DNA from: Dehalococcoidia bacterium
GTDB lineage: Bacteria; Chloroflexota; Dehalococcoidia; Bin125
Assembly: GCA_965203775.1 (NCBI GenBank)
Contig: OZ241913.1
Coordinates: 1,081,390 to 1,145,389 of the forward strand
Direction of reading: 5' to 3'
DNA: 64,000 bases
Shown piece by piece: positions 4,425 through 57,133 of the stretch. The notes below the pieces were generated by a model. It worked only from the letters and a program-made list of their open reading frames with translations. It was not told the origin of the DNA and ran no database searches. The first letter of the stretch is position 1; the number at the start of each line of letters is the position of its first letter. Made by a program: the position numbers and the translations under genes.

Positions 4425-4748
4425 ATGACCGAATGGGAACGCCTCGGCGGGCTGACGGTCCGCAAATTCGATTGGGTGGATCATCTGCGCGATGACGAAG
4501 ATGTCGCCGCGTACCTCGAGGCCGCCTACGAGTGGGGCGACCCCAAATTCATCACCACATGCCTCGCGGAAGTCGCCCGCGCCTACGGCGTAGCTGAGCT
4601 TCAACGCCCCGGCAGCGACGGCGCCGAGACGCTTGGCGACGCAACAGCCGCCCTCAACACGCTGCAGGCCGCGCAGATCCTCGACCTCCTGCGCAATTTC
4701 GGCTTGCAAATGCACTCCGCCGAGCCGATCCAGACACCCACTCGCTGA
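4425..4748 (+). CDS. divergent addiction-module antidote-like protein (HigA/TIGR02684-like N-terminal region, degenerate HTH)
   Basis: FDWVDHLRDDEDVAAYLEAAYEWGDPKFITTCLAEVARAYG resembles the conserved N-terminal part of the HI1420-type antidote family. AGGAAA SD sits 6 nt before the ATG at 4425. The longer ORF from 4371 is less likely. Confidence 0.5.
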   Translation: MTEWERLGGLTVRKFDWVDHLRDDEDVAAYLEAAYEWGDPKFITTCLAEVARAYGVAELQRPGSDGAETLGDATAALNTLQAAQILDLLRNFGLQMHSAEPIQTPTR

Positions 4749-4832
4749 AGAGAAGACGCTCTGCTATCGCTTCTCTGCCTGTAAGCTGGACTCGTAGGCC
4801 GCCTTGTCTACTCCTGAACCGATCGGAGCAGC

Positions 4833-5870
4833 ATGCGTGACGGAATCGACGCCGCCCTCCACATAGTGCATCGAAACGGCCCCGAATACGGCCCCGGCGC
4901 CTCGAACCATGCGCCGATGGCGATCGAGGCGATGACCGCAATGGGGCGCGGCGGCGGCATCATTCCTTGGCTGGAGGCCTACCGCGCAGAGCTGGACGAA
5001 GCCCCGCGCAGCGTCGCCCCAATCGCGCCCGACGAGTGGCGCGAAGCCCTTTCCGATCCAACCCGCGTCACCGATTGGATCGCCTTTTTCGACCGCGAGA
5101 TCGACCAACTTGGCTGGCGCGAAGCGGTCGCCTTGTGGGTTCCCCGCCTCGCGCCCGCGCTGATCTCCCGCGCGGCCCACGGACTAATCCGAACCACCCA
5201 CGCCGCGCGCAGCCTGACCAACGCCGAAACAGCGCCGCGCTTGCACGAACTCGCCCAGGGCCTGGGCTACTGGGCTTCCACCTGGCAAACGCTGCCCGGC
5301 GAGCCCGCCGCGTTTGCCGCTCCGCGCGCGCCGTCGCAGGCCATGCAAGGCGTTCAGCGCTTGCACGAACCCGGCTTCGTCAGCCAGGGCTTGATCTGGC
5401 AGACCATGCTGCGAATGCGCGAACAACCCAACTTCGCCGATACCATCAACCTGGCCGCGCCGGGCGAAAGCGTATCGGCGTTTCTGTCCAATCTCACCCA
5501 AACCGCCGCGCACTGGTACATGAGCGACCGCACGGTACCGTTCGTGTTCGTCCACACCGTAACCGCGCCGAGCGCGTTGCGCTTTGTTACACCGTATCTC
5601 TCGGACGCCAATGCGCGGCTGGCCGCCCGTTACGCCTGGCAAGCCTGCGCCGCCATGTACGCCTGGTACATGCTCGAAGAGCCGAACCCTGCCTACGATA
5701 CCGACGCCGAACTGCCCGGGCGGGACGACCTGATCGACCGCGCAATCCACGCCGCCGGCCCGCACGCAATCAAATTCACCGAAGCCTGCCTGCGCGAGTA
5801 CGAACTCAACCCCAACCCAATCTATCTGCATGCCGCCCACGACGCCACGGAGCGGATCGGCGACGGCTAA
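4833..5870 (+). CDS. hypothetical protein (345 aa), possibly DUF4243/questin-oxidase-like
   Basis: Long ORF with non-repetitive composition. Family call is from memory only. Confidence 0.45.
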   Translation: MRDGIDAALHIVHRNGPEYGPGASNHAPMAIEAMTAMGRGGGIIPWLEAYRAELDEAPRSVAPIAPDEWREALSDPTRVTDWIAFFDREIDQLGWREAVALWVPRLAPALISRAAHGLIRTTHAARSLTNAETAPRLHELAQGLGYWASTWQTLPGEPAAFAAPRAPSQAMQGVQRLHEPGFVSQGLIWQTMLRMREQPNFADTINLAAPGESVSAFLSNLTQTAAHWYMSDRTVPFVFVHTVTAPSALRFVTPYLSDANARLAARYAWQACAAMYAWYMLEEPNPAYDTDAELPGRDDLIDRAIHAAGPHAIKFTEACLREYELNPNPIYLHAAHDATERIGDG

Positions 5871-5899
5871 ATGCGTAGAACGTGAACAGCCCCAAGACC

Positions 5900-6800
5900 T
5901 GTTCACACTAATCACGCCCTCCACCCCTCCCTCCGTCATTCCTGCGCAGGCAGGAACCCAGGCGACCACCAGCGCCTGCGCTCGCCACCGGTATCTCGCC
6001 ACGCCCACCACCCCCCCAACACCCACCCCTTCCCCAATTCATCCCTCCCCCCTTCCAGGGGGGAGGTGAGGAGGGGGGTGGGCAGCCACGCCAACGCACC
6101 AAGCGCACCCAGCCCCAATCCCGACGCCACCCCTCCGTCGCACCCGCCCCAACCGTCATACCCCCGCCCCCTCTGTCACTCCTGCGCCCTCTTCCGTCAT
6201 TCCTGCGCAGGCAGGAACCCAGGCGACCACCAGCGCCTGCGCTCGCCACCGGTATCTCGTCACGCCCACCACCCAGCCAACACCCACCCCTTCCCCAATT
6301 CATCCCTCCCCCCTACTAGGGGGGAGGTGAGGAGGGGGGTGGGCAGCCACAAGCCAACGCACCAAACGCGCCCTGCCCCGATCCCTACCCCACACCTCCA
6401 TCGCCCCCGCCCCAACCGTCATACCCGCGCCCCTCTGTCACTCCTGCGCCCCCCTCCGTCATTCCTGCGCAGGCAGGAACCACGCGACCCCCAACCTACC
6501 CCCAAATCCACCCCCCACACGCATCCCTCCTCACACCCCCCAACACCCACCCCTTCCCCAATTCATCCCTCCCCCCCTACCAGGGGGGAGGTGAGGTGGG
6601 GGGTGAGAAGCCACGAGCCAACGCCCCAAGCGCACCCAGCCCCAATCCCTACGCCACACCTCCATCGCCCCCGCCCCCTCCGTCATCCTTGCACCTCCTC
6701 CGCCGCACCCGCCCCCTTCCGTCATTCCTGCCCCCTCCGTCATTCCTGCGCCCCCTTCGTCATTCCTGCGCAGGCAGGAACGGAAGGAAAGAGCGCAAAC
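5900..6800. repeat. tandem triplication (about 260 bp unit) of composite REP-like element (module A + module B)
   Basis: Three near-identical units starting near 5930, 6190 and 6450. Each holds GTCATTCCTGCGCAGGCAGGAAC and CCCTTCCCCAATTCATCCCTCCCCCC..GGGGGGAGGTGAGG. Confidence 0.9.
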
Positions 6801-11069: not shown

Positions 11070-11837
11070 ATGCTGCGGATGCGCCAAATCTGCCTCGTCG
11101 CCGAAGACCTCGACACCATCGAAGCCCACCTGCGCGGCGTCTTCGGACTCGAAATCTGCTACCGCGACGAAGGCGTCGCCGCCTTCGGATTGCACAACTT
11201 CCTCATGCCCGTCGGCGACAACTTCCTCGAAGTCGTCTCCCCGCTCCGACCCGGCACCGCCGGCGGACGCTTCCTCCAGCGCCGCGGCGGCGACGGCGGC
11301 TACATGGTGATCATGCAGTGCGACGACATCGCCGCCCGCCGCGCCCACGTCGCCGAACTCGGCATCCGCCTCGTCAACGACTCCCCCGGCGAGCGCTCCG
11401 ACGGCATCCAGCTGCACCCCAAGGATGTCCCCGGCGCAATCGCCGAACTGCGCTGGAACGAAGGCGACGACGACCCCGCCGGCCCCTGGCAGCCCGCTGG
11501 CCCCAACTGGCTCCCCGCCCAACGCGCCGAGATCATCGCCCGCATGACCGCCGCCGAGCTCCAGTCCGACAACCCGCAAGCAATGGCCGCCCGCTGGTCC
11601 GAAGTACTCCAGCGCCCCCAAACCCAAAACAACGCCGGCCAACCCACCATCGCCCTCGACGACGCCCAACTCCGCTTCGTCGAAGCAACCGACGGCCGCG
11701 GCGACGGCCTCAGCGGCCTCGATGTGGAAACAGTGGACCACCCCCACATCATCCAGGCCGCCCGCCACCACGAACTGAAAATCTCCAACGACGAAACCAC
11801 CATCACCCTCTGCGGCATCCACTTCCGCCTCACCTAA
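11070..11837 (+). CDS. VOC/glyoxalase-like domain protein
   Basis: 255 aa ORF. Glyoxalase-like N-terminal region. Weak family assignment. Confidence 0.5.
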   Translation: MLRMRQICLVAEDLDTIEAHLRGVFGLEICYRDEGVAAFGLHNFLMPVGDNFLEVVSPLRPGTAGGRFLQRRGGDGGYMVIMQCDDIAARRAHVAELGIRLVNDSPGERSDGIQLHPKDVPGAIAELRWNEGDDDPAGPWQPAGPNWLPAQRAEIIARMTAAELQSDNPQAMAARWSEVLQRPQTQNNAGQPTIALDDAQLRFVEATDGRGDGLSGLDVETVDHPHIIQAARHHELKISNDETTITLCGIHFRLT

Positions 11838-11976
11838 CCCCACCCCCACCGCCACCCCCGCACAGGCAGGAACCCCACCGTCATTCCTGCGCCCCCCACC
11901 GTCATTCCTGCGCAGGCAGGAACCCGCGCACCCACCCCGCGCACCCACCCTCCGCCACCCCTGCGCCCCCCCACCG

Positions 11977-13000
11977 TCATTCCTGCGCAGGCAGGAATGT
12001 GGAGTCAGCTTGCAAATGCAACAGTTGGTTGTGGAGCACTTCGGCGGGGGTCTGGTAGTCGAGGCACTTGCGGGGGGTGTTGTTGGCGGCGCGGATGACG
12101 GCGTGGAGCGCGGCGGCGGAGAGCGCGTTGAGGTCGGTGTTGCGGTGCAGGCGGCGGCGCAGCCGGCCGATCGCGTTCTCCACGCCGCCCTTCTGCCAGG
12201 GCGAATGCGGGTCGCAGAAGAACGTCTCGATGCCCAGGTCGTGGAGCCGGTGATGGCGGACGAACTCGGAGCCGTTGTCGAAGGTCGCGCTGCGCCGGAG
12301 GGCCGGCGGGAGGCGCCGGAACAGCCCGCGCAGGACGCGGCTGAGCAGCTCGGCGGCCTTGCTCGGCAGAGCCGCGGCGAGCAGCGCGCGGGAGCGGCGC
12401 TCCTGCAGCACGAGCAGCGGCGGGCGCCCCTGGCCGAAGCTCATCAGGTCCACCTCCCAGTGGCCGTAGACCAGCCGCGCGTCGGCCTCGGGCGGGCGCT
12501 CGCTGAGCGGGCGGCGCTCCTGCAGGTAATCGGTCGAGCCGCGCGCGCCGCGCGTGCGGCTGTAGCCGCGCTTGACCCGCCCGCGGGGCAGATAGCGGGC
12601 GAAGCGGTAGTCCTTGGTGCGGGCGATCTGGGCGTGGATGAAGCGGTAGATGCTCTCGGGCGAGATCACATGCCGCCCGGCTTCGCGTTTGAGCCGTCCG
12701 GCGACCTGCTGGGGCGAGAGGCCGGCGGCGAGCATGTTCAGCACCTGCTCGCGCAGTTCGGCGTCGCGCTCCAGCCGCAAGCCGCGGAAGCCCAGTCATG
12801 CAGTGGGCGCGGGTTTGCTGCTGGGCGTAGTCCGGGTCGTAGCCGCCGTCGGCGCGCGCGTTGCGCTTCAACTCTCGAGTAATCGTCGCTGGCGCGCGAT
12901 CCAGAGTTGCCGCGATTTGCCGCGCGGAGCGGCCCTCGGCGTGTAGTCGGGCCAGCCGCCAGCGCTCCTCGCGGCTGAGCTGCGTGTGCGTTCGGGCCAT
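11977..13000 (-). pseudogene. IS30-family transposase, frameshifted (HTH N-terminus in one frame, DDE core in another)
   Basis: N-terminal MARTHTQLSREERWRLARLHAEGRSARQIAATLDRAPATITRELKRN in frame 12005..13000. DDE core (HWEVDLM, FDNGSEF, CDPHSPWQKGGVENAIGRLRR) in frame 11977..12780. Frames switch near 12780-12800. Confidence 0.7.
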
Positions 13001-13440
13001 CGCTCCACCTCCAACATCCGTTGCACCCCAAGCGCCAACTTAGCGAACCCAGACGACTCCAGGGCCGTTCACGCTAAGCGCGCCCACCACCCGCCCCTTC
13101 CCCAATTCATCCCTCCCCCCTTCCAGGGGGGAGGTTAGGTGGGGGGTGGGAGGCCCCGAGTGTCCACCAGCGGCCGAGCCGCAGCCCGCACCCTCCAAGA
13201 CGCATCCACACTCCCTTCACCCCCGCGCCCCTCTTCCGCCACCCCCGCGCCCCCCTCTCCGTCATTCCTGCGCAGGCAGGAACCACCCACCCCCTTCCCC
13301 AATTCATCCCTCCCCCCTTTTAGGGGGGAGGTTAGGTGGGGGGTGGGAGGCCCCGAGCGTCCACCAGCGGCCGAGCGGCAGCCCGCGCCCTCCAAGGCGC
13401 ATCCACACCCCCGCTCCCCCCAGCTATCACACAGGCGCCC

Positions 13441-13522
13441 CACTGGTGTAAAGTGACAACCGTGAACCACACCGCCAACCTCCCGACCGCCGCCCAACGC
13501 GCCCGCCGCGCGGCAGCGGCGC
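13441..13522 (+). promoter_or_regulatory. conserved leader (about 80 bp) shared by the three RCC1-like genes, candidate -10 TAAAGT
   Basis: Near-identical to 34347-34431. Related to 48741-48821 (TGGTGTAGAGT variant). Confidence 0.35.
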
Positions 13523-15310
13523 TTGCCCGATCGGGGGGGGGGGGGGGATAAATTCCTCCCGATCGCCCTAGCGATCGCCGCGCTCCTACTCGCCGCCCTG
13601 ACCCTCGCTCAAGCCGCCACGCCCACCTCAACCAGCCGCTACCTCGCGCTCGACGCCGGCGGCGAGCATCAATGCACGCTCCGAGCCGACGGCGCAATCC
13701 GCTGCTGGGGCGGCAACTCCGCCGAGCTGCGCGATGTTCCGGAGGGGCGCTACGCCGCCGTCAGCGCCGGGGCTTGGCACAACTGCGCAATTCGGCGGGG
13801 GAGCGGGGCGGTCGTCTGTTGGGGCGGCGACTCGAACGCGCCTGACGGCGCGTTCAGCGAGATCGCCGTCGGCTGGCAGTTCGCCTGCGGCGTGCGCGAA
13901 ACGGGCGAGCTTGAGTGCTGGGGAACCAGCAGCTTCGGCCGCAGCGTGCTCGACTACGGGCAGGCCGAGCCGCCGGAGGGGGAGTTCAGCGCGGTTAGCG
14001 CGGGCTATCTGCACGCCTGCGGGCTGCGGACGACGGGAGAAGTTGCCTGTTGGGGGCGCGCCAACCTTGGGCGCACTGATGCGCCCGAGGGAGTCTTCAC
14101 GCAGGTGAGCGCGGGCACGACGCACTCCTGCGCGCTGCGCGAGAGTGGCGCGGTGGAGTGCTGGGGTCTGAACAACTTCGGGCAGTTGGATGCGCCGTCG
14201 GGCGTCTTCACTCAAGTGAGCGCCGGCGCGTGGCACTCCTGCGGGTTGCGCGAATCGGGGGTCATCGAATGCTGGGGGGATGATCGCTATGGGCAGTCCA
14301 ACGCCCCGTCCGGGCGCTACCTCGCTGTGAGCGCGGGAACGCGCCATTCCTGCGCCCTAAGCCGCGCGAGTGCTCGCTGCTGGGGCGGGCAGGATGATCG
14401 CCTGCTCGAGCTGATCGCGGGGCTCTCCCCGACAAGCGCCCCCCGGACCGTCGCTGCTCCCTCAATCCCTGATGAGGACGGCGCAACACCGGACCCGCCG
14501 ACGCCCACGCCGACATCCACGACATTCACCGCTGTCAGCGCGGGCGGGCGGCACACTTGCGCTTTGAAGAGCACCGGGGCGATCGACTGCTGGGGCGCGA
14601 ACGCATACGGCCAGAGCACGGATCCGACGGGCACATTCACCGCCGTCAGCGCGGGCATTTGGCATACTTGCGCCGTGACCAGCGCAGGTACGATCTCCTG
14701 CTGGGGGTTGAGCACGGAGCAACGGACCAACGCGCCGTCGGGCAGCTTTACGGCGGTCGGAGCCGGCGACCAACACAGCTGCGGCCTGCGCAGCACCGGG
14801 GCGGTCGAATGCTGGGGCAACAATCTGCATGGGCAAAGCAACGATCCGACAGGCAGCTTTACAGCGATCAGCGTCGGCACGAATCACAGCTGCGGCCTGC
14901 TGAGCAGCGGCGCGCTCTCGTGTTGGGGGCACAGCGGCAGCAATCGGCTCAACGCGCCGTCGGGCAGCTTCAGCGCGGTCAGCGCCGGCGGGCAGCACAG
15001 TTGCGCCATCACCAGTGCCGGCGCAATCGACTGCTGGGGGTACGGTGCCAACGGGCGAGCCGATGACCAGAGCGGCAATTTCAGCGTGGTGAGCGTGGGC
15101 GACGGGCACAGCTGCGCCGTGACTAGCGCGGGAGCGATCTCGTGCTGGGGACTGGATACTCGGCGCCAAGTGCGCGATGCGCCCTCCTCAGGCACGTTCA
15201 CGGCGGTCAGCGCGGGCCTCGATCACACCTGCGGCATCAAGGCCGACGGCACGATCTCCTGTTGGGGCCGAAACATCGAAGACCAGGCACCGGCGACGCG
15301 CTCGCCCTGA
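13523..15310 (+). CDS. secreted RCC1/BLIP-II-like repeat protein (two beta-propeller domains joined by a PT-rich linker), paralog 1. G15 tract at 13533-13547 inside codons 5-9
   Basis: TTG start. MPDRGGGGDK then signal-peptide-like IALAIAALLLAALTLAQA. Repeated CWG..G(Q/R)...P.G.F..VSAG..H.C motifs about every 50 aa. Confidence 0.7.
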   Translation: MPDRGGGGDKFLPIALAIAALLLAALTLAQAATPTSTSRYLALDAGGEHQCTLRADGAIRCWGGNSAELRDVPEGRYAAVSAGAWHNCAIRRGSGAVVCWGGDSNAPDGAFSEIAVGWQFACGVRETGELECWGTSSFGRSVLDYGQAEPPEGEFSAVSAGYLHACGLRTTGEVACWGRANLGRTDAPEGVFTQVSAGTTHSCALRESGAVECWGLNNFGQLDAPSGVFTQVSAGAWHSCGLRESGVIECWGDDRYGQSNAPSGRYLAVSAGTRHSCALSRASARCWGGQDDRLLELIAGLSPTSAPRTVAAPSIPDEDGATPDPPTPTPTSTTFTAVSAGGRHTCALKSTGAIDCWGANAYGQSTDPTGTFTAVSAGIWHTCAVTSAGTISCWGLSTEQRTNAPSGSFTAVGAGDQHSCGLRSTGAVECWGNNLHGQSNDPTGSFTAISVGTNHSCGLLSSGALSCWGHSGSNRLNAPSGSFSAVSAGGQHSCAITSAGAIDCWGYGANGRADDQSGNFSVVSVGDGHSCAVTSAGAISCWGLDTRRQVRDAPSSGTFTAVSAGLDHTCGIKADGTISCWGRNIEDQAPATRSP

Positions 15311-16389: not shown

Positions 16390-16625
16390 CAAAGCCACAC
16401 TACAGCATCCCGCCCCCCAACCGTCATTCCCGCGCAGCCAGGAACCCGCGCCCCCTCTCGTCATTCCTGCGCAGGCAGGAACCCACCACCGTCATTCCTG
16501 CGCCCCCTCTCGTCATTCCTGCGCAGGCAGGAACCCACCACCGTCATACCCACTCCCACCACCGTCATACCCGCGCCCCCTCTCGTCATTCCTGCGCAGG
16601 CAGGAACCACCCGCCCTAAGCCCGA
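16390..16625. repeat. REP-like module-A array (5 copies with 7-21 bp spacers)
   Basis: GTCATTCCTGCGCAGGCAGGAAC repeated with near-identical short spacers. Confidence 0.9.
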
Positions 16626-17212
16626 ACACCCGCCCCCAACGCCCGCCGATAATCCTCCGCCGTGTTCAAATTAAGCAACACCCCCGCATCCCCCACCTCC
16701 ACAAAAATCGTCCGCTCCCGCCAGCGACGCCGCACCTCCCGCAGACCCTCCCCCCGCTCCGACGCCCGCCGCAACTCCGGCAGCAGCGCCGCGTCGAACA
16801 CCGGCGGATGCCCGTTCCGCCCGCCGTGGCGAGGCACCGCAATCCGCGCCTCCCGATTGGCCCCAAGCGCCTCAACCAACGCCCGCACCGCCGACGCCGA
16901 GCACGGCTGATCCACGCTCGCCACCACCACCCGCTCCACATGCCGCGGCACCGCCCGCGCCCCCGCCCGAATCGACCCCGCCCGCCCCTCCCGCCACGCC
17001 CCGTTGATCGTCCACCGCGCCCCGCGCGGCAACGCCCGCCGCACCGCGCCCGACCGCGCGCCCAGCACCACAATCACCGGATCGCAGCCCGCCGCCGCCA
17101 GCGCCGCCACCTGCGCCGCGACCAGCGGACGCCCGCCCCAATCGAGCAGCGCCTTCGACTCCCCCATCCGCGACGATGCCCCCGCCGCCAGCAGAATCGC
17201 CGCCGTACTCAC
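16616..17212 (-). CDS. MobA-like NTP transferase domain protein (MocA/MobA family, molybdenum cofactor nucleotidyltransferase)
   Basis: AAILLAAGASSRMGESKALLDWGGRPLV N-terminal signature. GTG at 17210-17212. Confidence 0.65.
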   Translation of the reverse strand: MSTAAILLAAGASSRMGESKALLDWGGRPLVAAQVAALAAAGCDPVIVVLGARSGAVRRALPRGARWTINGAWREGRAGSIRAGARAVPRHVERVVVASVDQPCSASAVRALVEALGANREARIAVPRHGGRNGHPPVFDAALLPELRRASERGEGLREVRRRWRERTIFVEVGDAGVLLNLNTAEDYRRALGAGVRA

Positions 17213-19470: not shown

Positions 19471-19559
19471 AATCTCGGCCTCACGATCGGCCAACCAAAC
19501 GCCAGCCCGGCGCAGCGCTTCAGGCAAACTACTCACGCCCGCCACACTAAGCCCTGTCC

Positions 19560-19875
19560 ACACTTCCGTCACACCCGCGCCCCCTCCGTCATTCCTGCGC
19601 AGGCAGGAACCCGCGCCCCTCCCCGTCATTCCTGCGCAGGCAGGAACCCGCGCCCCTCTCGTCACACCTGCGCAGGCAGGAACCCGCACCCCTCCCCGTC
19701 ACACCCGCGCAGGCAGGAACCCGCACCCCTCCCCGTCACACCCGCGCAGGCAGGAACCCGCACCCCCTCCGCCATCCCAGCCCCCCCTTCCGTCATTCCT
19801 GCGTAGGCAGGAACCCGCACCCCCTCCGTCACCCCCGCACCCCTCCCCGTCATTCCTGCGCAGGCAGGAACACCG
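19560..19875. repeat. REP-like module-A minisatellite (7 copies, about 41 bp period)
   Basis: GTCAT(T/A)CC(T/C)GCGCAGGCAGGAACCCGC(G/A)CCCCTCCCC repeated. Confidence 0.9.
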
Positions 19876-19877
19876 CA

Positions 19878-20330
19878 TCACACCCCAAGCGCCTCAAACA
19901 CAGCCTGAAACTGATTGAGATCAGCCGGCTGATAAAACGGAATCGCCAGCACCACCAGCCCCCCCGCGTCGGCCGCAAAGGCCGCCCTCGCGCTCCGACC
20001 CGCCGCCTCGTCCGCCACACCGAACGCTCGCGCCGCCTCCAACTGCGGATCGCTGAACAGCGGAAACGGAAAACCCTGCGCCGACGCAAAGCGCCGCTGC
20101 GACTCCACATCGTCCGCGCTGATCGCCGCCACCGACGCGCCCAACTCCGCGATCAGCTCCCACTCGTCGCGGAACGCGCACAACTGCGTCGTGCAGGTCG
20201 GCGTGGCATCCTCCCGATAGAACAGCACCAACAGCGGCCCACTGCCCAGCAGATCGTGCAGCGCCAGCGCTCCCTGCGGCCCCTGCAGCGTCGGATTGGG
20301 CAGGCGATCGCCCACCGCAAGCGCCGTCAC
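19878..20330 (-). CDS. peroxiredoxin (AhpC/TSA-Bcp-like thiol peroxidase)
   Basis: LVLFYREDATPTCTTQLCAF redoxin motif with peroxidatic Cys. Confidence 0.75.
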   Translation of the reverse strand: MTALAVGDRLPNPTLQGPQGALALHDLLGSGPLLVLFYREDATPTCTTQLCAFRDEWELIAELGASVAAISADDVESQRRFASAQGFPFPLFSDPQLEAARAFGVADEAAGRSARAAFAADAGGLVVLAIPFYQPADLNQFQAVFEALGV

Positions 20331-23063: not shown

Positions 23064-24527
23064 ATGGCCAAGGCACAGACGACCCGCACCGGTCTGCCGC
23101 TCGACCGCAAGGCGCGCCTCCGGATCCCCCCGCATCACGTCACCAAACAGACGCCCCACGAGCGCGTCCATAACTGGGACGAGGTCTATTACGGCTACAC
23201 CGCCGGCCCCGCCATGTTCGAGGCCCAGCGCTGCATCCAGTGCCCCGCCGCGCCTTGCACCAAAGCCTGCCCCATCGACAACGACATCCCCGGCGCGCTC
23301 GCCTTCCTCGAAGTCGGCAAGCTCGCCGACGCCGCAGCCGTCTTCCGCCAGACCAGCGAAATGCCCGAACTCTGCGGACGCCTCTGCCCCCAGGAAGCGC
23401 TCTGCGAGGGCGTCTGCGTCGTCGGCAAAAAGGCCAAACCCGTCGCCATCGGCAAGCTCGAAGCCTTCCTCGGCGACTGGGACCGCGGCCGGCGCGGCGG
23501 CTTCCCCATCCCCGCTCCCGAGCGCGAGAGCGGCCGGCGCGTCGCCGTCGTCGGCTCCGGCCCCGCCGGGCTGGCCGTCGCCGAAGCCATGCGCGCCGCC
23601 GGACACGCCGTCACCGTCTTCGAAGCCTGGCCCGCCGCCGGCGGCGTCCTCCGCTACGGCATCCCCAACTTCAAATCCGCCAAAGACATCGTCGACGAAA
23701 AAGTCGAAGCGCTCCGCGCCGCCGGCGTCGAATTCCGCTTCGAGACCCGCGTCGGGCAGGAAGTGACCTGGGACGACCTCGACGACTGGGACGCGGTCTT
23801 CCTCGGCCACGGCGCGGGCGCCGGCAAACGCCTCCGCCTCGAAGGCGAAGAACTCGCCTTCGTCTACTCCGCCACCGAATTCCTCGTCCGCGCCAACCTC
23901 CCCGCCGCCGAACTGCCCGCCGCCATGCGCAGCCGACCCGAAGCCGAAGGCAAGCGCGTCGTCGTGGTCGGCGGCGGCGACACCTCCATGGACTGCGTCC
24001 GCTCCGCAATCCGCCTCGGCGCGTCCCATGTCACCCTGCTCTACCGCCGCACCGAAAACGAAATGCAGGGACGCCTCGAAGAACGCACCCACGCCCGCGA
24101 AGAAGGCGTCAGCTTTGAATACCTCACCACCCCCGTCCGACTGCTCGGCAAAGACGGCCATGTCGCCGCCGTCGAATGCGTCCGCATGACCCTCGGCGAA
24201 CCCGACGACAGCGGCCGCCGCCGCCCCATCCCCCACCAGGGCTCCGAATTCATCCTCGACGCCGATGTCGTCGTCGTCGCCGTCGGCTACGACGTCAGCC
24301 GCGAGCTCTACGAAGACTCCGGCATCGACGTCAACGACTGGGGCGAAGTCCTGGTAGACGAGGCCGGCCGCACCTCCCGCCCCGGCGTCTTCGCCGCCGG
24401 CGACAACGTCCACGGCGCAGACCTCGTCGTCACCGCCCTCAGCAGCGCCCACGCCGCCATCCCCACCATGCAAGAGTGGCTCGCCGACCACCTCGCCCCC
24501 GCCGCCGCCCCCACAGCCGCCGGCTAG
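23064..24527 (+). CDS. glutamate synthase small-subunit (GltD)-like NAD(P)H-dependent FAD/Fe-S oxidoreductase
   Basis: N-terminal Cys cluster (CIQCPAAPCTKACP), two dinucleotide-binding sites (VVGSGPAGLA and VVVVGGGDTSMDC). CAGGAGG SD. Confidence 0.8.
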   Translation: MAKAQTTRTGLPLDRKARLRIPPHHVTKQTPHERVHNWDEVYYGYTAGPAMFEAQRCIQCPAAPCTKACPIDNDIPGALAFLEVGKLADAAAVFRQTSEMPELCGRLCPQEALCEGVCVVGKKAKPVAIGKLEAFLGDWDRGRRGGFPIPAPERESGRRVAVVGSGPAGLAVAEAMRAAGHAVTVFEAWPAAGGVLRYGIPNFKSAKDIVDEKVEALRAAGVEFRFETRVGQEVTWDDLDDWDAVFLGHGAGAGKRLRLEGEELAFVYSATEFLVRANLPAAELPAAMRSRPEAEGKRVVVVGGGDTSMDCVRSAIRLGASHVTLLYRRTENEMQGRLEERTHAREEGVSFEYLTTPVRLLGKDGHVAAVECVRMTLGEPDDSGRRRPIPHQGSEFILDADVVVVAVGYDVSRELYEDSGIDVNDWGEVLVDEAGRTSRPGVFAAGDNVHGADLVVTALSSAHAAIPTMQEWLADHLAPAAAPTAAG

Positions 24528-24681
24528 CCCCCCAACCATCATTCCTGCGCAGGCAGGAACCCGCGCCCCCTCTCCGTCATTCCTGCGCAGGCAGGAACCT
24601 GCCACCCCCTCCCGTCATTCCTGCGCAGGCAGGAACCCGCGCCCCCTCTCCGTCATTCCTGCGCAGGCAGGAACCCACGCC

Positions 24682-25164
24682 CTAGCCGGAAAAGCGCCAG
24701 CGGGTGGCGTTGCTCGGGAAGCCCGCCTCACTCCAGGCGATCGCTTTGCGCAGCTCCAGACGGAAAACGGGAAAGCCCTCCGCCATCGGCGGCATCTCGT
24801 ACTTCTCGTTGAACGCCTTCAGCACCGCGGGGCTGAGCGGAAGCTGATCGAACCGCCCGTCGAGCAACACCACATCGTCGCCGCTCTCAAGATGGACGGC
24901 CGCGCGCGGATCGCGCGCAATGTTCTTCGCCGTCAGCGACTCCACATCAGTCAGAAAGTGAAACGCATCCTCCGCCCAGACGCCCCAGACAGGCACCGAA
25001 TGCGGCCGCCCCGACGGGCGCGTAGTGGCGATCCAGTAGTTCCGCTCGCCCGCAAACCGCTCAACCACATCGCTCCAGGCAATCGGCGTAAACGGGTGGT
25101 CAGGGTCCCCCAGCCCAAAGCTGGGCGGCATCTCCGGGCGATCAGGCTGAGGCGCTTGGGGCAT
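24682..25164 (-). CDS. pyridoxamine 5'-phosphate oxidase family (PPOX-class FMN/F420-binding) protein
   Basis: Split-barrel family signature region. GGAGG SD before the ATG at 25162-25164. Confidence 0.6.
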   Translation of the reverse strand: MPQAPQPDRPEMPPSFGLGDPDHPFTPIAWSDVVERFAGERNYWIATTRPSGRPHSVPVWGVWAEDAFHFLTDVESLTAKNIARDPRAAVHLESGDDVVLLDGRFDQLPLSPAVLKAFNEKYEMPPMAEGFPVFRLELRKAIAWSEAGFPSNATRWRFSG

Positions 25165-25199: not shown

Positions 25200-25745
25200 A
25201 TCACTCACAGTCGCACCAGTGATTCGCCCACCCCCTCCCCAACCGTCATTCCTGCGCCCCCCATTCCGTCATTCCTGCGCAGGCAGGAACCCAACTCTCC
25301 CCCACACTCCGCACCCACCCCCCTCCCCAATTCATCCCTCCCCCCTTCCAGGGGGGAGGTTAGGTGGGGGGTGGGAGCCCCGAGCAACCACCAGCCCCCA
25401 CTCACACCACCGCCACCCCCCTCCCCCATCCGCCATCCCCGCGCCCTCCCAACCGTCATCCCTGCGCAGGCAGGAACCCTGCTCTCCCCGACACTCCGCA
25501 CCCACCCCCTTCCCCAATTCATCCCTCCCCCCTACCAGGGGGGAGGTTAGGTGGGGGGTGGGAGCCCCGAGCAACCACCAGCCCCCACTCACACCACCGC
25601 CCCCCTCCCCCAACCGCCATCCCCGCGCCCCCCAACCGCCATCCTCATCCGCCATCCCCGCGCCCTCCCAACCGTCATCCCTGCGCCCCCCAACCGTCAT
25701 TCCTGCGCAGGCAGGAACCGCGCAGAAACACCAGCACCCCAACCC
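25200..25745. repeat. composite REP-like array (modules A and B, multiple copies)
   Basis: Two A+B units plus an extra A copy. Confidence 0.9.
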
Positions 25746-25747
25746 CC

Positions 25748-26164
25748 CTACACCACCTCACCCAGCGCGTCGTAAGTACCGAGATACCAAAGATTCCCCT
25801 CCGGGTCCGCCAGCGTGAACGCATGCGAACCATAGCCCGTGTCCTCCAGCGGCTGCATCACCGTCGCCCCGGCCGCCTGCGCGCGCGCGTAAATTTCGTC
25901 CACCTGCGCCGCGGACTCAGCGGTCAGATTGACCGAGCCATGGCGGTAGGAAAGGTCGTACCAGACCTCAGACTCCGGCTCCACCGAGCCGAGCATGATC
26001 AGACTGCCGCGCCACTCAATCTGCGCGTGATCGATCCGCCCGTCCTCGCCGGGCGCTACGAAATGCTCGGTCATACCGAAGATCTCGCGCAGCCAGGCGA
26101 TCGCGGCGGGCGCGTCGGCATAGCGCAGGCTGGGAATCACGGTCTGGCGGGATGCGTCGGGCAT
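25748..26164 (-). CDS. VOC (glyoxalase/bleomycin-resistance/dioxygenase) family protein
   Basis: 138 aa. Tandem paralog of the next gene. Confidence 0.7.
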   Translation of the reverse strand: MPDASRQTVIPSLRYADAPAAIAWLREIFGMTEHFVAPGEDGRIDHAQIEWRGSLIMLGSVEPESEVWYDLSYRHGSVNLTAESAAQVDEIYARAQAAGATVMQPLEDTGYGSHAFTLADPEGNLWYLGTYDALGEVV

Positions 26165-32599: not shown

Positions 32600-32989
32600 C
32601 CGAGCATACGCAGCGCCCGCACCCCACCCGTCATTCCTGCGCAGGCAGGAACCCACGCCTCCCTCTCCGTCATTCCTGCGCAGGCAGGAACCGCACCCCC
32701 TCTCCGTCATTCCCGCGCTCCTCCTCCGTCATTCCTGCGCAGGCAGGAACCCACCCACCCCACCACCCACCCCTTCCCCAATTCATCCCTCCCCCCTTTT
32801 AGGGGGGAGGTTAGGAGGGGGGTGGAAAGCCCCGAGCGTCCACCAGCGGCCGAGCGCGGCAACCCGCACCCACCAAGACGCATCCACACTCCCTTCACCC
32901 TCGCGCCTCCTCTCCGTCATTCCTGCGCAGGCAGGAACCCTCCCACCCCACCACCCACCCCTTCCCCAATTCATCCCTCCCCCCTTTTA
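32600..32989. repeat. composite REP-like array (modules A and B). The last module B is interrupted by the IS5-family insertion
   Basis: Sequence match to other arrays. Confidence 0.85.
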
Positions 32990-34177
32990 GAGACCTTTGA
33001 AAAAGTCGGCTGGCGGGGTTGTTGGGGGCGTTTTAGGGCGCGGGATGGCGCGGTTGGGGCCTTGCGCGGGGGGTTCGGGCGGGTGTTTTTGGGGCTGCGC
33101 GGGCGGGTTGGGCGCACTGCGCCCGGCGGCGGCGAGGCTTAGACTGCGGCCTGCAGCCGCACGAGTTTGCGCAGGTTGAAGGCGAGGCATTTGAGGTAGA
33201 ACTCGAAGCGGTTGCGCTCCAGGCTGTAGTAGCGCGTGGTGCGGTAGCCGTAGCTGCGTTTGAACGTGCCGAAGACCGGCTCGACCTTGCGTCTGGTTCG
33301 CTCCCAGAGCGCGTTCAGTTCGCGCTCCGCCTCCGTCAGCGGGTGGTAGCGGTCGGCCCGTCTGAGGATGCGGCAGTCGATCCGCATCGCCTCCAGCAGT
33401 GCGCGCCGCTCGGCCTTGTCGTAGGCGCGGTCGGCGTGCACCGCCGCCTCGTCGCCGGTCAGCAGCGCCTCGGCGACCTGCGACTCGTTGACGTTGGCCG
33501 GGGTGAAGACGCCGCGGCGGATCAGTTGGGTGTCGGCGTCGACCCCGATGTGGCCTTTGTAGCCGTAGCAGGCGTTCCCGCGGGCGCCGCCCCAGGCGGC
33601 GTCCGGGTCGGTCGGCCCCTGGGCCGACTTGGAGCGCCGCCGCGAGGCCTGCGCCTCGATCAGCGTGGCGTCCATCAGCGTCGCGCGGCCCGGCTCGATG
33701 AACAGCCCCTGCGCCTCCAACTGCTCGTCCAACTCGCGCAGCAGCGCCTCGCCCAGCCCGCGCTGCGCGAACAGCGCGCGGTAACGGCTGATCGTGGAGT
33801 GATCGGGGATCTCCTCGCAGAGGCTCAGCCCCGCGAAGCGGCAGAACGAGGCGCGCTCCCAGAGCATGTCCTCCATCGCCGGGTCGGACAGGTCGCGCCA
33901 CTGCTGCAGCAGACAGATTTTGAGCATGACCAGCGCCGGGTAGGCCTTGCGGCCCATCCGCGAGCCGTGCAGCCCGGCCAGCAGCCGCGCGAAGCGCGTC
34001 CAGTCAATCGCCGCGTGGATCGCCTCCAACTGCGCGTTGCGCCCGCGACGCTCCGGTATCTGCGCCTCGCCGAACGACCCCTGCCTGCGCTCACGCTCCA
34101 TGCCGCACCCCTTTCGCGTCCAACCCACCGCGTTCCCCACAAGAATCGCCGATCCCCCAGAGTTGTGCAAAGGTCTC
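32990..34177 (-). mobile_element. IS5-family insertion sequence (1188 bp) with 10-bp terminal inverted repeats GAGACCTTTG and 5-bp target-site duplication TTTTA
   Basis: Left end GAGACCTTTGAAAAAG, right end CAAAGGTCTC. Flanking TTTTA at 32985-32989 and 34178-34182. Removing the element restores an intact module-B repeat CCCCCCTTTTAGGGGGG. Confidence 0.8.
33139..34170 (-). CDS. IS5-family DDE transposase
   Basis: YGYKGHIGVDADTQLIRRGVFTPANVNESQ ... VEPVFGTFKRSYGY ... FYLKCLAFNLRKL, typical of the IS5 group. Confidence 0.8.
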   Translation of the reverse strand: MHNSGGSAILVGNAVGWTRKGCGMERERRQGSFGEAQIPERRGRNAQLEAIHAAIDWTRFARLLAGLHGSRMGRKAYPALVMLKICLLQQWRDLSDPAMEDMLWERASFCRFAGLSLCEEIPDHSTISRYRALFAQRGLGEALLRELDEQLEAQGLFIEPGRATLMDATLIEAQASRRRSKSAQGPTDPDAAWGGARGNACYGYKGHIGVDADTQLIRRGVFTPANVNESQVAEALLTGDEAAVHADRAYDKAERRALLEAMRIDCRILRRADRYHPLTEAERELNALWERTRRKVEPVFGTFKRSYGYRTTRYYSLERNRFEFYLKCLAFNLRKLVRLQAAV

Positions 34178-34431
34178 TTTTAGGGGGGAGGTTAGGTGGG
34201 GGGTGAGAGGCCCCGAGCGTCCACCAGCGGCCGAGCGCGACAACCCGCACCCTCCAAGACGCATCCACACTCCCGTCATTCCTGCCTCCCCACCGTCATT
34301 CCTGCGCAGGCAGGAACCCGCGACGAGCGCAGCTATGACGAAGGCGCCCCACTGGTGTAAAGTGACAACCGTGAACCACACCGCCAACCCCCAAACCACC
34401 GCCCAACGCGCCGGCCGCGCGTTGGCGGCGC

Positions 34432-36249
34432 TTACCCGATCGGGGGGGGGGGGGGGATAAATTCCTCCCGATCGCCCTCGCGATCGCCGCGCTCCTGCTC
34501 GCCGCCCTGACCCTTGCCCAGGCCGCCACGCCCACCTCAACCAGCCGCTACCTCGCGCTGGACGCCGGCGGCGAGCACCAATGCACCCTCCGCGCCGACG
34601 GCGTGATTCGCTGCTGGGGCGGCAACTCATCCGAGCTGCGCGATGTTCCGGAGGGGCGCTACGCGGCGGTCGGTGCCGGGGCGTGGCACAACTGCGCGAT
34701 TCGGCGGGGGAGCGGGGATGTCGTCTGCTGGGGCGGAGACTCGAACGCGCCTGACGGCGCGTTCGTTGATGTGGCCGCAGGCTGGCAGTTCGCCTGCGGC
34801 GTGCGCGAGGCAGGCGAGCTTGAGTGCTGGGGAACCAGCAGCTTCGGGCGCAGCGTGCTCGACTACGGCCAAGCGGAGCCGCCCGATGGCGAATTCAGCG
34901 CGGTTAGCGCCGGCTACCTGCACGCCTGCGGACTGCAAACGACAGGCGAAATCACCTGTTGGGGCCGCGCCAACCTCGGACGCACCAACGCGCCATCAGG
35001 CACTTTCACCCAAGTAAGCGCCGGCACCACGCACAGCTGCGCCCTGCGCGAAACCGGCGCAGCCGAATGCTGGGGCCTCAACAACTTCGGCCAGATGGAC
35101 GCTCCCTCAGGCGTCTTCACCCAAATCAGCGCCGGAGCCTGGCACAGCTGCGGGTTGCGCGAATCAGGCGCAATCGAATGCTGGGGCGACGACCGCTACG
35201 GCCAGTCCAACGCCCCATCCGGGCGCTACCTCGCCGTGAGCGCGGGAATGCGCCACTCCTGCGCCCTAAGCCGCGCGGGCACGCGCTGCTGGGGCGGGCA
35301 GGACGATCGCCTGCCTGAGCTGATTGTGGAGCTCGCGCCGGCAAGCAGCACCCGGACCGTCGCGGCTCCCTCAAGCGGCGACGAAAGCGATACGACGCCG
35401 GACCCTGTGACGCCCACGCCGACACCAACACCGACTCCGCCGACGACGACCTTCACCACGCTGAGCGCGGGCGACTATCACAACTGCGCGCGACGCAGCA
35501 CGGGCACGATCGACTGCTGGGGCAGTAACACAAACGGTCAGAGCGCCGATCCCTCCGGCAGCAGCTTCACGACAGCCAGCGCGGGCACCTCGCAGAGCTG
35601 CGGGCTGACCAGCGCCGGTGCGCTCTCCTGCTGGGGGCTGAGCACTACGCGTCCGACCACGGCGCAGGCGCAATCCAGCACGTTCACCGCGGTTGACGCC
35701 GGCGGGGTTGTCTGCGCCGTGCGCAGCGCGGGCACGCTCGCCTGCTGGGGGACGGCCGCCTATGGCGAAGACACGCCACCGACGGGCAGCAGCTTTACGG
35801 CGGTGAGCGTGGGCGACGAGCACGCCTGTGCGCTGAGCAGCGCGGGCGCCATCTCCTGTTGGGGTCGAAGCGCCAATGGGCGGACGACGGTTACGGCTGG
35901 CACGTATACGGCCGTGAGCGCGGGCGGGTTCCATAGCTGCGGGCTGACCAGCACGGGCGCGATCGTCTGCTGGGGCTGGAATGGCTACGGTCAGAGCGCC
36001 GCGCAAACGGGGACATTCACGGCGGTCAGCGCGGGCTGGGGGCACACCTGCGGCCTGCGCAGCACGGGCGCGATCGAGTGCTGGGGTCGGAGCAGCGCCC
36101 ACCCGACCACGGCGCAGGGGCAATCGAGCACGTTCACGGCGGTCGCGGCAGGCCGCGATCACACCTGCGGGCTGAAGAGCGACGGCACGATCGCCTGCTG
36201 GGGCAGCAACGCGAGCGGGCAAGCGCCGACGGCGGGCGTGTCGCCGTAG
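34432..36249 (+). CDS. RCC1-like double beta-propeller secreted protein, paralog 2. Canonical TTG start replaced by TTA; G15 tract at 34442-34456; first usable in-frame start GTG at 34603
   Basis: The frame is open from 34432 and encodes the same signal peptide as paralogs 1 and 3, but the track ORF starts at 34603 because no start codon remains upstream. Confidence 0.55.
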   Translation, partial: LPDRGGGGDKFLPIALAIAALLLAALTLAQAATPTSTSRYLALDAGGEHQCTLRADGVIRCWGGNSSELRDVPEGRYAAVGAGAWHNCAIRRGSGDVVCWGGDSNAPDGAFVDVAAGWQFACGVREAGELECWGTSSFGRSVLDYGQAEPPDGEFSAVSAGYLHACGLQTTGEITCWGRANLGRTNAPSGTFTQVSAGTTHSCALRETGAAECWGLNNFGQMDAPSGVFTQISAGAWHSCGLRESGAIECWGDDRYGQSNAPSGRYLAVSAGMRHSCALSRAGTRCWGGQDDRLPELIVELAPASSTRTVAAPSSGDESDTTPDPVTPTPTPTPTPPTTTFTTLSAGDYHNCARRSTGTIDCWGSNTNGQSADPSGSSFTTASAGTSQSCGLTSAGALSCWGLSTTRPTTAQAQSSTFTAVDAGGVVCAVRSAGTLACWGTAAYGEDTPPTGSSFTAVSVGDEHACALSSAGAISCWGRSANGRTTVTAGTYTAVSAGGFHSCGLTSTGAIVCWGWNGYGQSAAQTGTFTAVSAGWGHTCGLRSTGAIECWGRSSAHPTTAQGQSSTFTAVAAGRDHTCGLKSDGTIACWGSNASGQAPTAGVSP

Positions 36250-40189: not shown

Positions 40190-41100
40190 TAGGGGCTTTA
40201 GAGGTTGTGCCGCCCCCCGTCACCCCCGCGCCCTCTCCCCGTCATTCCCGCACCCCCTCTCCGACATTCCTGCGCCCCCTCTCCGTCATTCCTGCGCAGG
40301 CAGGAACCCGCAACCTCCCAATCCCCGCCTCACCTCCCCTCTTCCCCAATTCATCCCTCCCCCCTTCCAGGGGGGAGGTTAGGTGGGGGGTGGAACGCCG
40401 CGAGCGCACACCAGTCACGCCCCGCCCCGAAAATCACCCACGCCACCCGCCCCCCCGTCATTCCCGCGCCCGCCCTCCCGTCATCCCCGCGCCTCTCCCG
40501 TCATTCCTGCGCCCCCTCTCCGTCATTCCTGCGCAGGCAGGAACCCGCAACCTCCCACCCCCCGCCTCACCTCCCCTCTTCCCCAATTCATCCCTCCCCC
40601 CTTCCAGGGGGGAGGTGAGGTGGGGGGTGGAACGCCGCGAGCGCACACCAGTCACGCCCCGCCCCGAAATCACCCACGCCACCCACCCCCCGTCATTCCC
40701 GCGCCCGCCCTCCCGTCATCCCCGCACCCCCTCTCCGACATTCCTGCGTCCCTCTTCCGTCATTCCTGCGCAGGCAGGAACCCACCCGCGCCCACCCCCC
40801 ACCTCACCTCCCCTCTTCCCCAATTCATCCCTCCCCCCTCCCAGGGGGGAGGTTAGGTGGGGGGTGGGACGTTGCGAGCGACTACCAGCGATCGTTCGCG
40901 CCCCACTCGCCCACGCTGCGCCTCGACCGCCACGCTGCCATCTCATCCACCGTCATTCCTGCGCAGGCAGGAATCCAGCGCGCCTGCGCTCCATTCCGTC
41001 ATTCCTGCGCAGGCAGGAACCCGCGCCCTCCTCCCCGTCATTCAGGCCACTCTCTTTCCGTCATTCCTGCGCAGGCAGGAACCACCCCACACCCCCACTT
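40190..41100. repeat. composite REP-like array (3-4 A+B units)
   Basis: Repeated units near 40250-40400, 40490-40640, 40730-40870, 40940-41090. Confidence 0.9.
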
Positions 41101-41189
41101 CCCCCAAATCCTGCTACACTCACACTAGAACAGGAGTGCCGAACCATGCCTCTCTCCCCACAACACCGCCGCCCCTCCCTCCACGTCGA

Positions 41190-41300
41190 CGCCGTCAACC
41201 CCAACCTTGCCAACGCTGACCAAAACTTGACAGAGGTTGACACCAGGTTGACAAAAGTTGACAAGGGTTGACAAAAGTTGACACCGTCAACCCCTACCCC
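41190..41300 (+). promoter_or_regulatory. phased array of six direct GTTGACA repeats (10-11 bp period) flanked by inverted GTCAAC copies; iteron/operator-like
   Basis: AACTTGACAGAGGTTGACACCAGGTTGACAAAAGTTGACAAGGGTTGACAAAAGTTGACACCGTCAACCCC. GTCGAC and GCCGTCAAC lie upstream, GCGTCAAC..TGTCAAC downstream. Confidence 0.5.
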
Positions 41301-41628
41301 CACCCCAAACCCCAGCAAAACACAGCAAAACCGCAGCCACACCCACCACCCCGACACCCCCAGCGTCAACCTGCGCTGTCAACCCCTCCGACACACCCCG
41401 AACAACCCTGAACAAATCCGAACAACCCTGAACAAACCCGAACACCGCCGAACGCCCCGACCAGATAGGGAGCACCCCCAAATCACCCCCCAACACCCCC
41501 AAAAAAACAAACCCCGAACACCCTCTGCGCCGCCCGCCCGCGCGGTTCCTGCCTGCGCAGGAATGACGGAACGGGGGGCGCAGGGCATGACGGTTGGGGG
41601 GTGGCGGGGAGAGGAGCGTGAACAGGCG

Positions 41629-48740: not shown

Positions 48741-48821
48741 GCTGGTGTAGAGTTTCACTCATGCGACGCGACTCCCACACCCCGACCACCCTCCAACGCG
48801 CCTGCCGCGCGTTGGCGGCGC
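48741..48821 (+). promoter_or_regulatory. leader of RCC1-like paralog 3 (related to 13441-13522)
   Basis: Shares the ...CAACGCGCC.GCCGCGCG(TT/GC)GGCGGCGCTTGCCCGATCGG 3' half with the other two leaders. Confidence 0.3.
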
Positions 48822-50642: not shown

Positions 50643-50885
50643 GCGAGGTTCCTGCCTGCGCAGGAATGACGAAGAGGGCGCAGGAATGACGGGAGAGGGC
50701 GCAGGGGTGACGGAGGGGGCGGCAGGAATGACGGAGTGGGTGGCAGGCACGACGGAACGGGAGCGTGCGGGGTTTGAGCGGCGGCAAGCGTGCTTGGTGC
50801 TCGGCGCGGCGAGATACCCGCGGCGAGCGCGGGTATGACGGATCTGGCTGTGCGGGGGCGGCGGATGGCGATGTGCGAGCAGGCC

Positions 50886-54034: not shown

Positions 54035-55703
<1,669 letters not shown>

Positions 55704-57085: not shown

Positions 57086-57133
57086 CCGACACCACCGGTC
57101 GTGCGCGCCCCGATCCGTCCACACCCTCCCGCC

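Follow-up and report, generated by a model that had tools for sequence, protein, structure and literature searches.

Long poly-G tracts in an RCC1-like propeller gene family and a DNA methyltransferase gene of a Dehalococcoidia bacterium as candidate contingency loci

A 64,000-nucleotide stretch of a Dehalococcoidia bacterium genome (contig OZ241913.1 of assembly GCA_965203775.1, positions 1,081,390 to 1,145,389), referred to here as the window, carries three paralogous genes for RCC1-like beta-propeller proteins, numbered copies 1 to 3 by position. Each has a long uninterrupted G tract near its 5' end, and a solitary DNA methyltransferase gene located 5 kb past copy 3 contains a fourth. An earlier note on this DNA proposed that the three propeller genes are phase-variable, switched by slippage in their tracts. 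The open reading frames (ORFs) and tracts concerned are as follows.

13523 to 15310, forward strand: RCC1-like double-propeller ORF of copy 1, read from the TTG codon chosen in the earlier note
13533 to 13547, forward strand: G15 tract of copy 1, an uninterrupted run read from the sequence
34432 to 36249, forward strand: RCC1-like double-propeller ORF of copy 2, with 597 intact codons past the tract
34442 to 34456, forward strand: G15 tract of copy 2, likewise uninterrupted
48822 to 50642, forward strand: RCC1-like double-propeller ORF of copy 3, matching the RCC1_2 profile
48832 to 48849, forward strand: G18 tract of copy 3, likewise uninterrupted
54035 to 55703, forward strand: beta-class N6-adenine DNA methyltransferase with a C-terminal Mrr-like nuclease domain (ATG at 54035, stop at 55703)
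54290 to 54303, forward strand: G14 tract within the methyltransferase gene, at about codon 86, out of frame

All four tracts were recovered with the coordinates and lengths first reported for them. A G12 probe has 18 overlapping matches in the window, every one of them at these tracts, against 0.06 expected from dinucleotide-preserving shuffles, and a count of 18 was reached in none of 100 shuffles. The tracts therefore lie far beyond chance, as had been claimed. Apart from them, homopolymers in the window reach 8 nt at most, and across 271 kb sampled from the lineage every homopolymer of at least 11 nt belongs to an RCC1 leader or to the methyltransferase gene. Two details of the earlier description need correcting: the GC content, put at 72% for the genome, is 69.2% as measured in the window, and the tracts are not all at the 5' ends of genes, as the fourth lies 255 nt into the methyltransferase gene and splits it. 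The flanks of the first three tracts are near-identical (...GCGCTT(G/A)CCCGATC-Gn-ATAAATTCCTCCCGATCGCC...). The opening TTG-CCC-GAT-CGG that had been ascribed to all three paralogs is found in copies 1 and 3, while copy 2 has TTA in place of TTG. The octamer CCCGATCG also occurs on either side of the tract, in the arrangement CCCGATCG-Gn-ATAAATTCCT-CCCGATCG (13526 to 13533 and 13559 to 13566 in copy 1, and likewise in copies 2 and 3). This pair looks like a short direct repeat flanking an insert, though it may be a coincidence.

The description of the three genes as RCC1-like paralogs holds, with RCC1_2 E-values of 6e-93, 2e-85, and 7e-91 for copies 1, 2, and 3, respectively, and WD40_RLD matches above the cut-off of that profile. 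Their ORFs share 74–84% DNA identity. By inspection, each protein opens with a hydrophobic leader whose last residues are AQA, and two sets of seven 'CWG' blades follow, joined by a Pro/Thr linker and with two Cys per blade. Read in the TTG frame, the N-terminus is MPDRGGGG(G)DKFLPIALAIAALLLAALTLAQA, and DKFLPIALAIAALLLAALTLAQA|A has by eye the basic residue, hydrophobic core, and AxA motif of a signal peptide. The propellers are predicted to be secreted, and an extracytoplasmic location fits because of the two Cys per blade. Among solved structures, the nearest in sequence is the extracellular propeller of plant ACR4 (7a0j, E 2e-20). A twin-arginine (Tat) signal was rejected, as the RR pair is not conserved across the paralogs and lies 17 aa away from the hydrophobic core.

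The family extends well beyond the window. The compared genomes are three related single-contig assemblies, in which the flanking genes are 95–98% identical to those of the window, and scaffolds with names of the form PANK22-1_SAMN1229xxxx_METAG supply more distant ones. To judge by these names, the scaffolds may come from sponge metagenomes, and the organism is probably a sponge-associated Chloroflexota symbiont. Sequences outside the window are cited here by labels such as L001 and proteins by labels such as P0122. Starts and frames were tabulated for 23 family loci from four single-contig genome assemblies and three separately assembled metagenome scaffolds. One of the single-contig assemblies, the species-representative Dehalococcoidia metagenome-assembled genome (MAG) OZ241849.1, holds 14 separate family loci with the tract at the same leader position (G15 in eight, G16 in three, G17 in two, and G20 in one).

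Tract length varies among these relatives while tract position does not, all 23 loci carrying G11–G20 at one common position. At the locus syntenic with copy 3 the tract is G18 in the window, G19 in L001, and G17 in L002. At that of copy 2 it is G15 in the window, L008, and L025, and G14 in L026, whereas copy 1 and its ortholog L019, which are 99.6% identical over 2.7 kb, both have G15. More divergent copies carry G13, G14, or GGGTG11. A Gly run built from mixed GGN codons, the pattern that the earlier note had set against its own proposal, is not what relatives display; the close ones keep pure homopolymers. Two coding alignments between assemblies, 2569 and 1474 nt long, are entirely free of gaps, making general homopolymer noise in the assemblies unlikely.

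Conservation across the same loci bears on where translation begins. In 23/23 loci a GTG (21 loci) or ATG (two loci) stands 71 nt 5' of the tract, and in 23/23 a GGTGTA(A/G/C)AGT box containing a TAnAGT hexamer precedes this codon by 7 nt (once 6 nt). The sequence of the 7-nt spacer between box and start is freely variable. Most loci also have an ATGACG/ATCACR -35-like box 17 nt 5' of the TAnAGT hexamer. Homology between paralogs starts at the -10-like box, and nowhere in the locus is conservation higher than in the flanks of the tract, with a mean pairwise identity of 0.90–0.95. The only indel in the leader is of 9 nt and preserves the frame. In the window these elements lie as follows.

13445 to 13454, forward strand: conserved GGTGTAAAGT box of copy 1, identified by conservation, with the -10-like hexamer TAAAGT at 13449 to 13454
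13462 to 13464, forward strand: likely leaderless GTG start of copy 1, from which, with G15, 29 codons are read before TAA at 13549 to 13551
34354 to 34363, forward strand: conserved -10 box of copy 2, with the GTG start at 34371 to 34373
48744 to 48753, forward strand: conserved -10 box (GGTGTAGAGT) of copy 3, with the ATG start at 48761 to 48763

On balance, this pattern of conservation favours a start at the upstream GTG/ATG on a leaderless mRNA. The leader product would be V(N/K)H.A....T.AQRA.RALAALARS-Gly(n)-DKFLPIALAIAALLLAALTLAQA, with the tract at about codons 25–30. Gene callers likewise choose the upstream frame whenever it is open, as in L002, which is called at 637 aa, and in P0137 and P0139. 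Elsewhere they misannotate genes of this kind as N-terminally truncated proteins of 448–550 aa. Automated annotation can in this way hide signal peptides, and a whole family with them.

The gene model of the earlier note, a TTG start with the tract in codons 5–9, is probably wrong, since the TTG is not conserved and the upstream GTG/ATG and TAnAGT box are present in 23/23 loci. TTA replaces TTG in 3/18 close copies (window copy 2, L001, and L008), and TTG is missing from 4/5 more distant ones (L021, L022, L023, and L025), two of the copies without it reading through from the GTG. GCC/GCT/GCG variants just 5' of the tract leave the amino acid unchanged when read in the GTG frame but exchange Pro, Leu, and Arg in the TTG frame. 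TTG is also a weak start codon, preceded on inspection only by a GGCGG-like stretch. If translation nevertheless began at the TTG, 10 nt 5' of the tract, G15 and G18 would be ON lengths. Copies 1 and 3 would then be producing protein, and ±1 nt would be enough to turn them off by the same switching mechanism. Such a start is possible, if unlikely, and it has points in its favour: MPDRGGGGDK followed by a hydrophobic core and AQA has the ordinary shape of a Sec signal peptide, an in-frame TTG is found in 8/10 fully tabulated copies of the 0 mod 3 phase, and 11/19 tracts of the ATAAATT type are 0 mod 3 in length, which would make sense if most copies were kept ON. This last excess is not significant (chi-square p ~0.08, with loci that are not independent) and consists of G15 alone, with no 3-nt periodicity.

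From the upstream start, the tract length decides the fate of the frame. It reads through the tract in 6/23 loci, namely L002, L010, and L015 (all G17), L016 (G20), L021, and L023. In the remaining 17/23 it is blocked, and all three phases are occupied across the 23. The three window copies belong to the blocked group, as their upstream frame stops after 29–30 codons at the TAA of a GGA-TAA that abuts the tract. Programmed ribosomal frameshifting at this GGA-TAA was rejected on inspection, as +1 re-pairing of the tRNA would be poor and a -1 shift leads to the wrong frame. In copy 2 the G15 tract puts the propeller out of frame with the GTG and TTA stands in for TTG, which leaves this copy OFF under either gene model. 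With the upstream start, copies 1, 2, and 3 (G15, G15, and G18) are probably all OFF in the assembled consensus. This reverses the previous assignment of G15 and G18 as ON states with the frame kept in copies 1 and 3, both lengths being OFF lengths when translation starts at the GTG/ATG.

Taken together, these tracts are likely to be simple-sequence contingency loci, in which slippage would switch each paralog independently, the methyltransferase gene having acquired the same switch. A G run sits in the leader-coding part of each family member, just 5' of the stretch encoding the hydrophobic core of the putative signal peptide. Slipped-strand mispairing at replication would change its length by single bases, and the length would set whether translation from the GTG/ATG enters the propeller (ON) or stops after the tract (OFF). 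For the ATAAATT-flanked type, the ON lengths would be those of 2 mod 3 (G14, G17, and G20), while a 0 mod 3 tract would lead to an immediate TAA and a 1 mod 3 tract to a stop 17 codons further on. On this scheme 3/14 copies would be ON in OZ241849.1. In silico, full-length and truncated products follow tract length for the propellers and for the methyltransferase alike. Independent switching of each copy could generate combinatorial repertoires of surface or secreted proteins, which may serve to avoid recognition by the host or by phages. What the earlier note proposed thus survives in its core: the tract lengths, the frames, the constraint on the ORFs, and the length differences between relatives that are not multiples of three all agree with slipped-strand contingency loci, while its gene model and its ON and OFF assignments are probably wrong.

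The ORFs downstream of the tracts are preserved whatever the frame. All 16 complete copies have an ORF of 549–601 codons past the tract, among them five for which neither gene model provides a start in frame. Pairwise ratios of nonsynonymous to synonymous differences per site (pN/pS) are 0.16–0.24 for the N-terminal propeller and 0.34–0.61 for the C-terminal propeller, and copy 2 gives 0.27–0.39 against its paralogs. Intact and constrained ORFs are what would be expected of genes that are in frame part of the time. A family of pseudogenes was rejected on the strength of these intact ORFs and of pN/pS values below 1. Three metagenome-scaffold copies (L021, 6001 to 7590; L022, 3695 to 5397; L023, 650 to 1464) contain additional damage, between them a TGC-to-stop change and two internal frameshifts, which may reflect genuine pseudogenes or the collapse of paralogs during assembly.

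The tract in the methyltransferase gene divides it into pieces of 172 and 448 aa. When the tract is set in silico to G13 or G16, a protein of 555/556 aa results, with 94% identity along its full length to the intact, tract-less 552-aa homologs P0124 and P0122. Its length also differs among relatives, being G14 in the window, G8 in L001 (9939 to 9946), and G11 in L002 (9937 to 9947), and a second allele type with different flanks has G14 in L024. Between the window and L001, 332 nt to the left of the tract and 2373 nt to the right are identical and only the tract length differs. In the DNA of an intact homolog, L027, the tract position is occupied by GAC GGC GGC, so that the tract is a derived feature of this lineage. 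The split gene is under constraint, with a pN/pS of 0.07. The lengths of 14, 8, and 11 share one out-of-frame phase and differ by multiples of 3, which has a chance probability of about 1/9. This could hint at selection on that phase.

The best match of the methyltransferase in PADLOC is MTase_II (5.7e-59), MTase_III being weaker. Neither gene adjoining it matches a PADLOC defence model, and its scanned neighbours are metabolic enzymes, with no res or hsd partner among them. The enzyme is a candidate phase-variable epigenetic regulator or phage-defence modifier, which would be OFF in the consensus. At L002 16294 to 21347, a cluster comprising a DUF1156 methyltransferase, a DUF499 protein, and a HEPN_Swt1-like gene has the look of a defence island. 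It stands where the window and L001 have an fn3-domain gene.

The constraint on genes that are out of frame can also be read as a sign of slippage during transcription. Long homopolymers promote transcriptional slippage, as in Thermus dnaX and the poly-A tracts of endosymbionts. RNA polymerase slipping on G8–G20 would yield transcripts of mixed length from each copy and, regardless of the length in DNA, a fixed fraction of in-frame protein, giving leaky, stochastic expression in place of a heritable ON/OFF switch. This would account for the methyltransferase gene, in which 4/4 tract-bearing alleles are out of frame yet show the low pN/pS given above and one allele type keeps a single phase (8, 11, and 14), and for the RCC1 copies, most of which are out of frame but intact. 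However, the two methyltransferase allele types need opposite corrections (-1/+2 versus +1/-2), and all three phases are represented among the RCC1 tracts, no out-of-frame phase being favoured across subfamilies. RNA folding of the leader is not exceptional either (z = -0.18), the local G6-AUAAAUU-CCUCCC hairpin being nothing distinctive. As length changes at the DNA level are certain, RNA slippage is distinctly unlikely as the explanation of these loci, yet the two mechanisms are compatible.

Besides changes in tract length, the propeller genes differ by exchange of larger segments. Syntenic RCC1 genes are 78–85% identical where their flanks are 95–98% identical. Copy 3 (48822 to 50642) and the L001 allele (4590 to 6242) have a pS of 0.42, compared with 0–0.04 for the neighbouring methyltransferase gene in the same genomes. 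Between L002 (4366 to 6279) and L014 the C-terminal propeller is 97–100% identical and the N-terminal propeller at most 88%, with the breakpoint at the linker. Since the genes are mosaic and syntenic alleles divergent, the family also diversifies by recombination among paralogs. Recombination would add to the diversity produced by switching, above all in the C-terminal propeller.

Mosaicism also suggests another role for the tracts. The pilE G4 of Neisseria is a G-quadruplex that starts recombination, and the G runs discussed here could be sense-strand quadruplex or R-loop elements that initiate recombination between paralogs, changes of frame being a by-product. The mosaic genes and replaced syntenic alleles fit this idea, as does the fact that paralog homology begins just 5' of the tract and is strongest in its flanks. 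In addition, the shortest ATAAATT-type tract, G15, is by our own arithmetic the shortest run that allows a three-tetrad quadruplex with 1-nt loops. Against this, other RCC1 subfamilies carry G11–G14 and the methyltransferase alleles extend the range of such shorter tracts to G8–G14. The sole clear breakpoint lies at the linker between the propellers, 1 kb from the tract, and there is no asymmetry of donor and expression sites, as each copy has its own promoter-like box. A quadruplex as the primary function is highly unlikely.

Several observations weigh against reading these tracts as switches. Codon-position entropy and Nei–Gojobori pN/pS on the 72-nt leader do not favour the GTG frame, though these are weak tests, the region being too short and fast-evolving and the entropy window offset by 1 nt. 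A consensus sigma-70 promoter and terminator scan called nothing, so the promoter is proposed from conservation. All four tract-bearing methyltransferase alleles are out of frame and no ON allele was seen, for which the chance expectation is (2/3)^4 = 0.2. Among the ATAAATT-type tracts (L001–L019 and the window copies), G15 accounts for 11/19 and none is shorter, a distribution not expected from simple unbiased slippage. The exact length of a 15–20 nt homopolymer in a long-read consensus is uncertain by about 1 nt, the compared genomes are strains of ~95–98% identity and not clones, and all are consensus assemblies, from which heterogeneity within populations and reversibility of switching are extrapolated. 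That the tracts are fixed poly-Gly linkers blurred by sequencing and assembly noise is a very remote prospect: runs of 15–20 nt are indeed the hardest for long-read consensus and the MAGs are consensus sequences of unknown chemistry, but G14 versus G8 or G11 and G15 versus G20 far exceed the usual ±1 errors, G11–G14 tracts recur in separately assembled metagenome scaffolds from other samples, coding alignments of 1.5–2.6 kb between assemblies are free of indels, and a fixed Gly linker would not leave 17/23 copies out of frame behind a conserved start.

Searches for wider relatives of the leader returned little. A full-length RCC1 protein search and an exhaustive HMMER search with the leader-bearing P0139 were swamped by generic RCC1 repeats, and no leader relatives were found in them beyond four ENA proteins. 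A scan of Joint Genome Institute (JGI) metagenomes with the 20-mer 3' of the tract found nothing from the lineage, its sole match being a chance, Bacillus-like one. Three Bacillus/Neobacillus matches in a genome scan were also judged to be chance. A diversity-generating retroelement was rejected, as no reverse transcriptase match occurs among the window ORFs scanned.

Other features of the window include a dispersed intergenic repeat family with a unit of ~20–22 nt, CCGTCATTCCTGCGC(AGGCAGGAACCC), in arrays of up to 800 nt that look like repetitive extragenic palindromic (REP) elements or miniature inverted-repeat transposable elements (MITEs). Some of these arrays precede copies 1 and 2, and copy 3 is directly followed by one. 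Two transposase genes, of the IS30 family immediately 5' of copy 1 and of the IS5 family immediately 5' of copy 2, may bear on how the propeller family spread or was rearranged. An array of six GTTGACA motifs is followed by short repeats in a locally A-rich region, which looks like iterons or phased binding sites. A tRNA is the sole Rfam match in the window.

5932 to 6781, 11820 to 11997, 13081 to 13412, 16403 to 16626, 19554 to 19891, 24486 to 24691, and 25216 to 25763: intergenic repeat arrays
32611 to 32990, 34177 to 34319, 40209 to 41106, 50643 to 50774, 56697 to 57156, and 60138 to 60432: further intergenic repeat arrays
11977 to 12780, reverse strand: IS30-family transposase
33139 to 34170, reverse strand: IS5-family transposase
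41226 to 41450: six GTTGACA motifs at 10–11 nt spacing, then 10-nt CCGAACAA-type repeats
56573 to 56646, reverse strand: tRNA

Phase-variable contingency loci belong to the standard repertoire of host-adapted pathogens. Literature searches that covered phase variation and contingency loci in Chloroflexi and sponge symbionts, together with RCC1 in sponge symbionts, yielded no report of such loci in Chloroflexota or Dehalococcoidia, in sponge symbionts, or in RCC1-like proteins. The mechanism proposed here is classical; what is new is the phylum, the ecological setting, the protein family, the family size, and the tract length. If switching takes place, an uncultivated and presumably mutualistic marine symbiont would use stochastic variation of its surface, and possibly of its epigenome, which would provide a handle on how symbionts cope with phagocytosis by the host and with phage pressure. 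The most complete version of this picture joins at least 14 leaderless genes for secreted, eukaryote-like propellers, each gated by an unusually long tract of G15–G20 with three frame states, a possible part for transcriptional slippage or quadruplex-stimulated gene conversion, a coupled phase-variable methyltransferase, and continuous variation by a mutualist of the proteins displayed to host phagocytes and phages. It is unlikely to hold in its entirety.

The opa genes of Neisseria offer the closest parallel in organisation. They number 11–12, carry CTCTT repeats in the region coding for the signal peptide, recombine among paralogs, and have variable domains. The propeller genes resemble them as a multi-copy envelope or secreted family (with at least 14 members here) in which a repeat in the leader would switch the frame of each copy and recombination adds variation. 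They differ in having a homopolymer and not a pentamer, in encoding a soluble double propeller and not an 8-stranded beta-barrel outer-membrane protein, and in belonging to an uncultivated member of the Chloroflexota and not to a human pathogen. Switching is here predicted from consensus sequence, and the likeness to opa is an analogy of mechanism, not of family membership. At the level of protein structure the likeness is to ACR4/CRINKLY4, which share the Cys-rich extracellular RCC1-like blades. In ACR4 these form the ectodomain of a plant receptor kinase, whereas here two tandem propellers stand behind a putative bacterial signal peptide.

Campylobacter jejuni, Helicobacter pylori, and Neisseria meningitidis likewise carry poly-G tracts of strain-dependent length inside surface-structure and restriction-modification genes, close to the 5' end. 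The tracts of those species are typically G8–G13 and belong to a variety of unrelated genes, in genomes that are AT-rich or of moderate GC content. Here, by contrast, tracts of G13–G20 at 69% GC are concentrated in one paralogous family and one methyltransferase. The latter resembles the phasevarions of H. pylori (modH, poly-G) and H. influenzae (modA), as a repeat within the methyltransferase ORF sets the frame, and here the gene is constrained though out of frame. Phasevarion enzymes are Type III mod or Type I hsd, unlike the Mrr-like fusion with a Type II beta-class best match described here.

The earlier note knew of no such architecture in RCC1-family proteins or in this kind of high-GC, non-pathogen-like genome. 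The first part agrees with the literature searched. High GC content is not in itself without precedent, as reversible frameshifts in homopolymers or simple sequence repeats (SSRs) are familiar from high-GC species, examples being the 7C tract of glpK in M. tuberculosis, the poly-C tracts of bvgS and fim in Bordetella, and the SSRs of Burkholderia mallei. Those cases concern single genes or promoter tracts, and the propeller genes are set apart from them as a family of at least 14 members with a common leader cassette.

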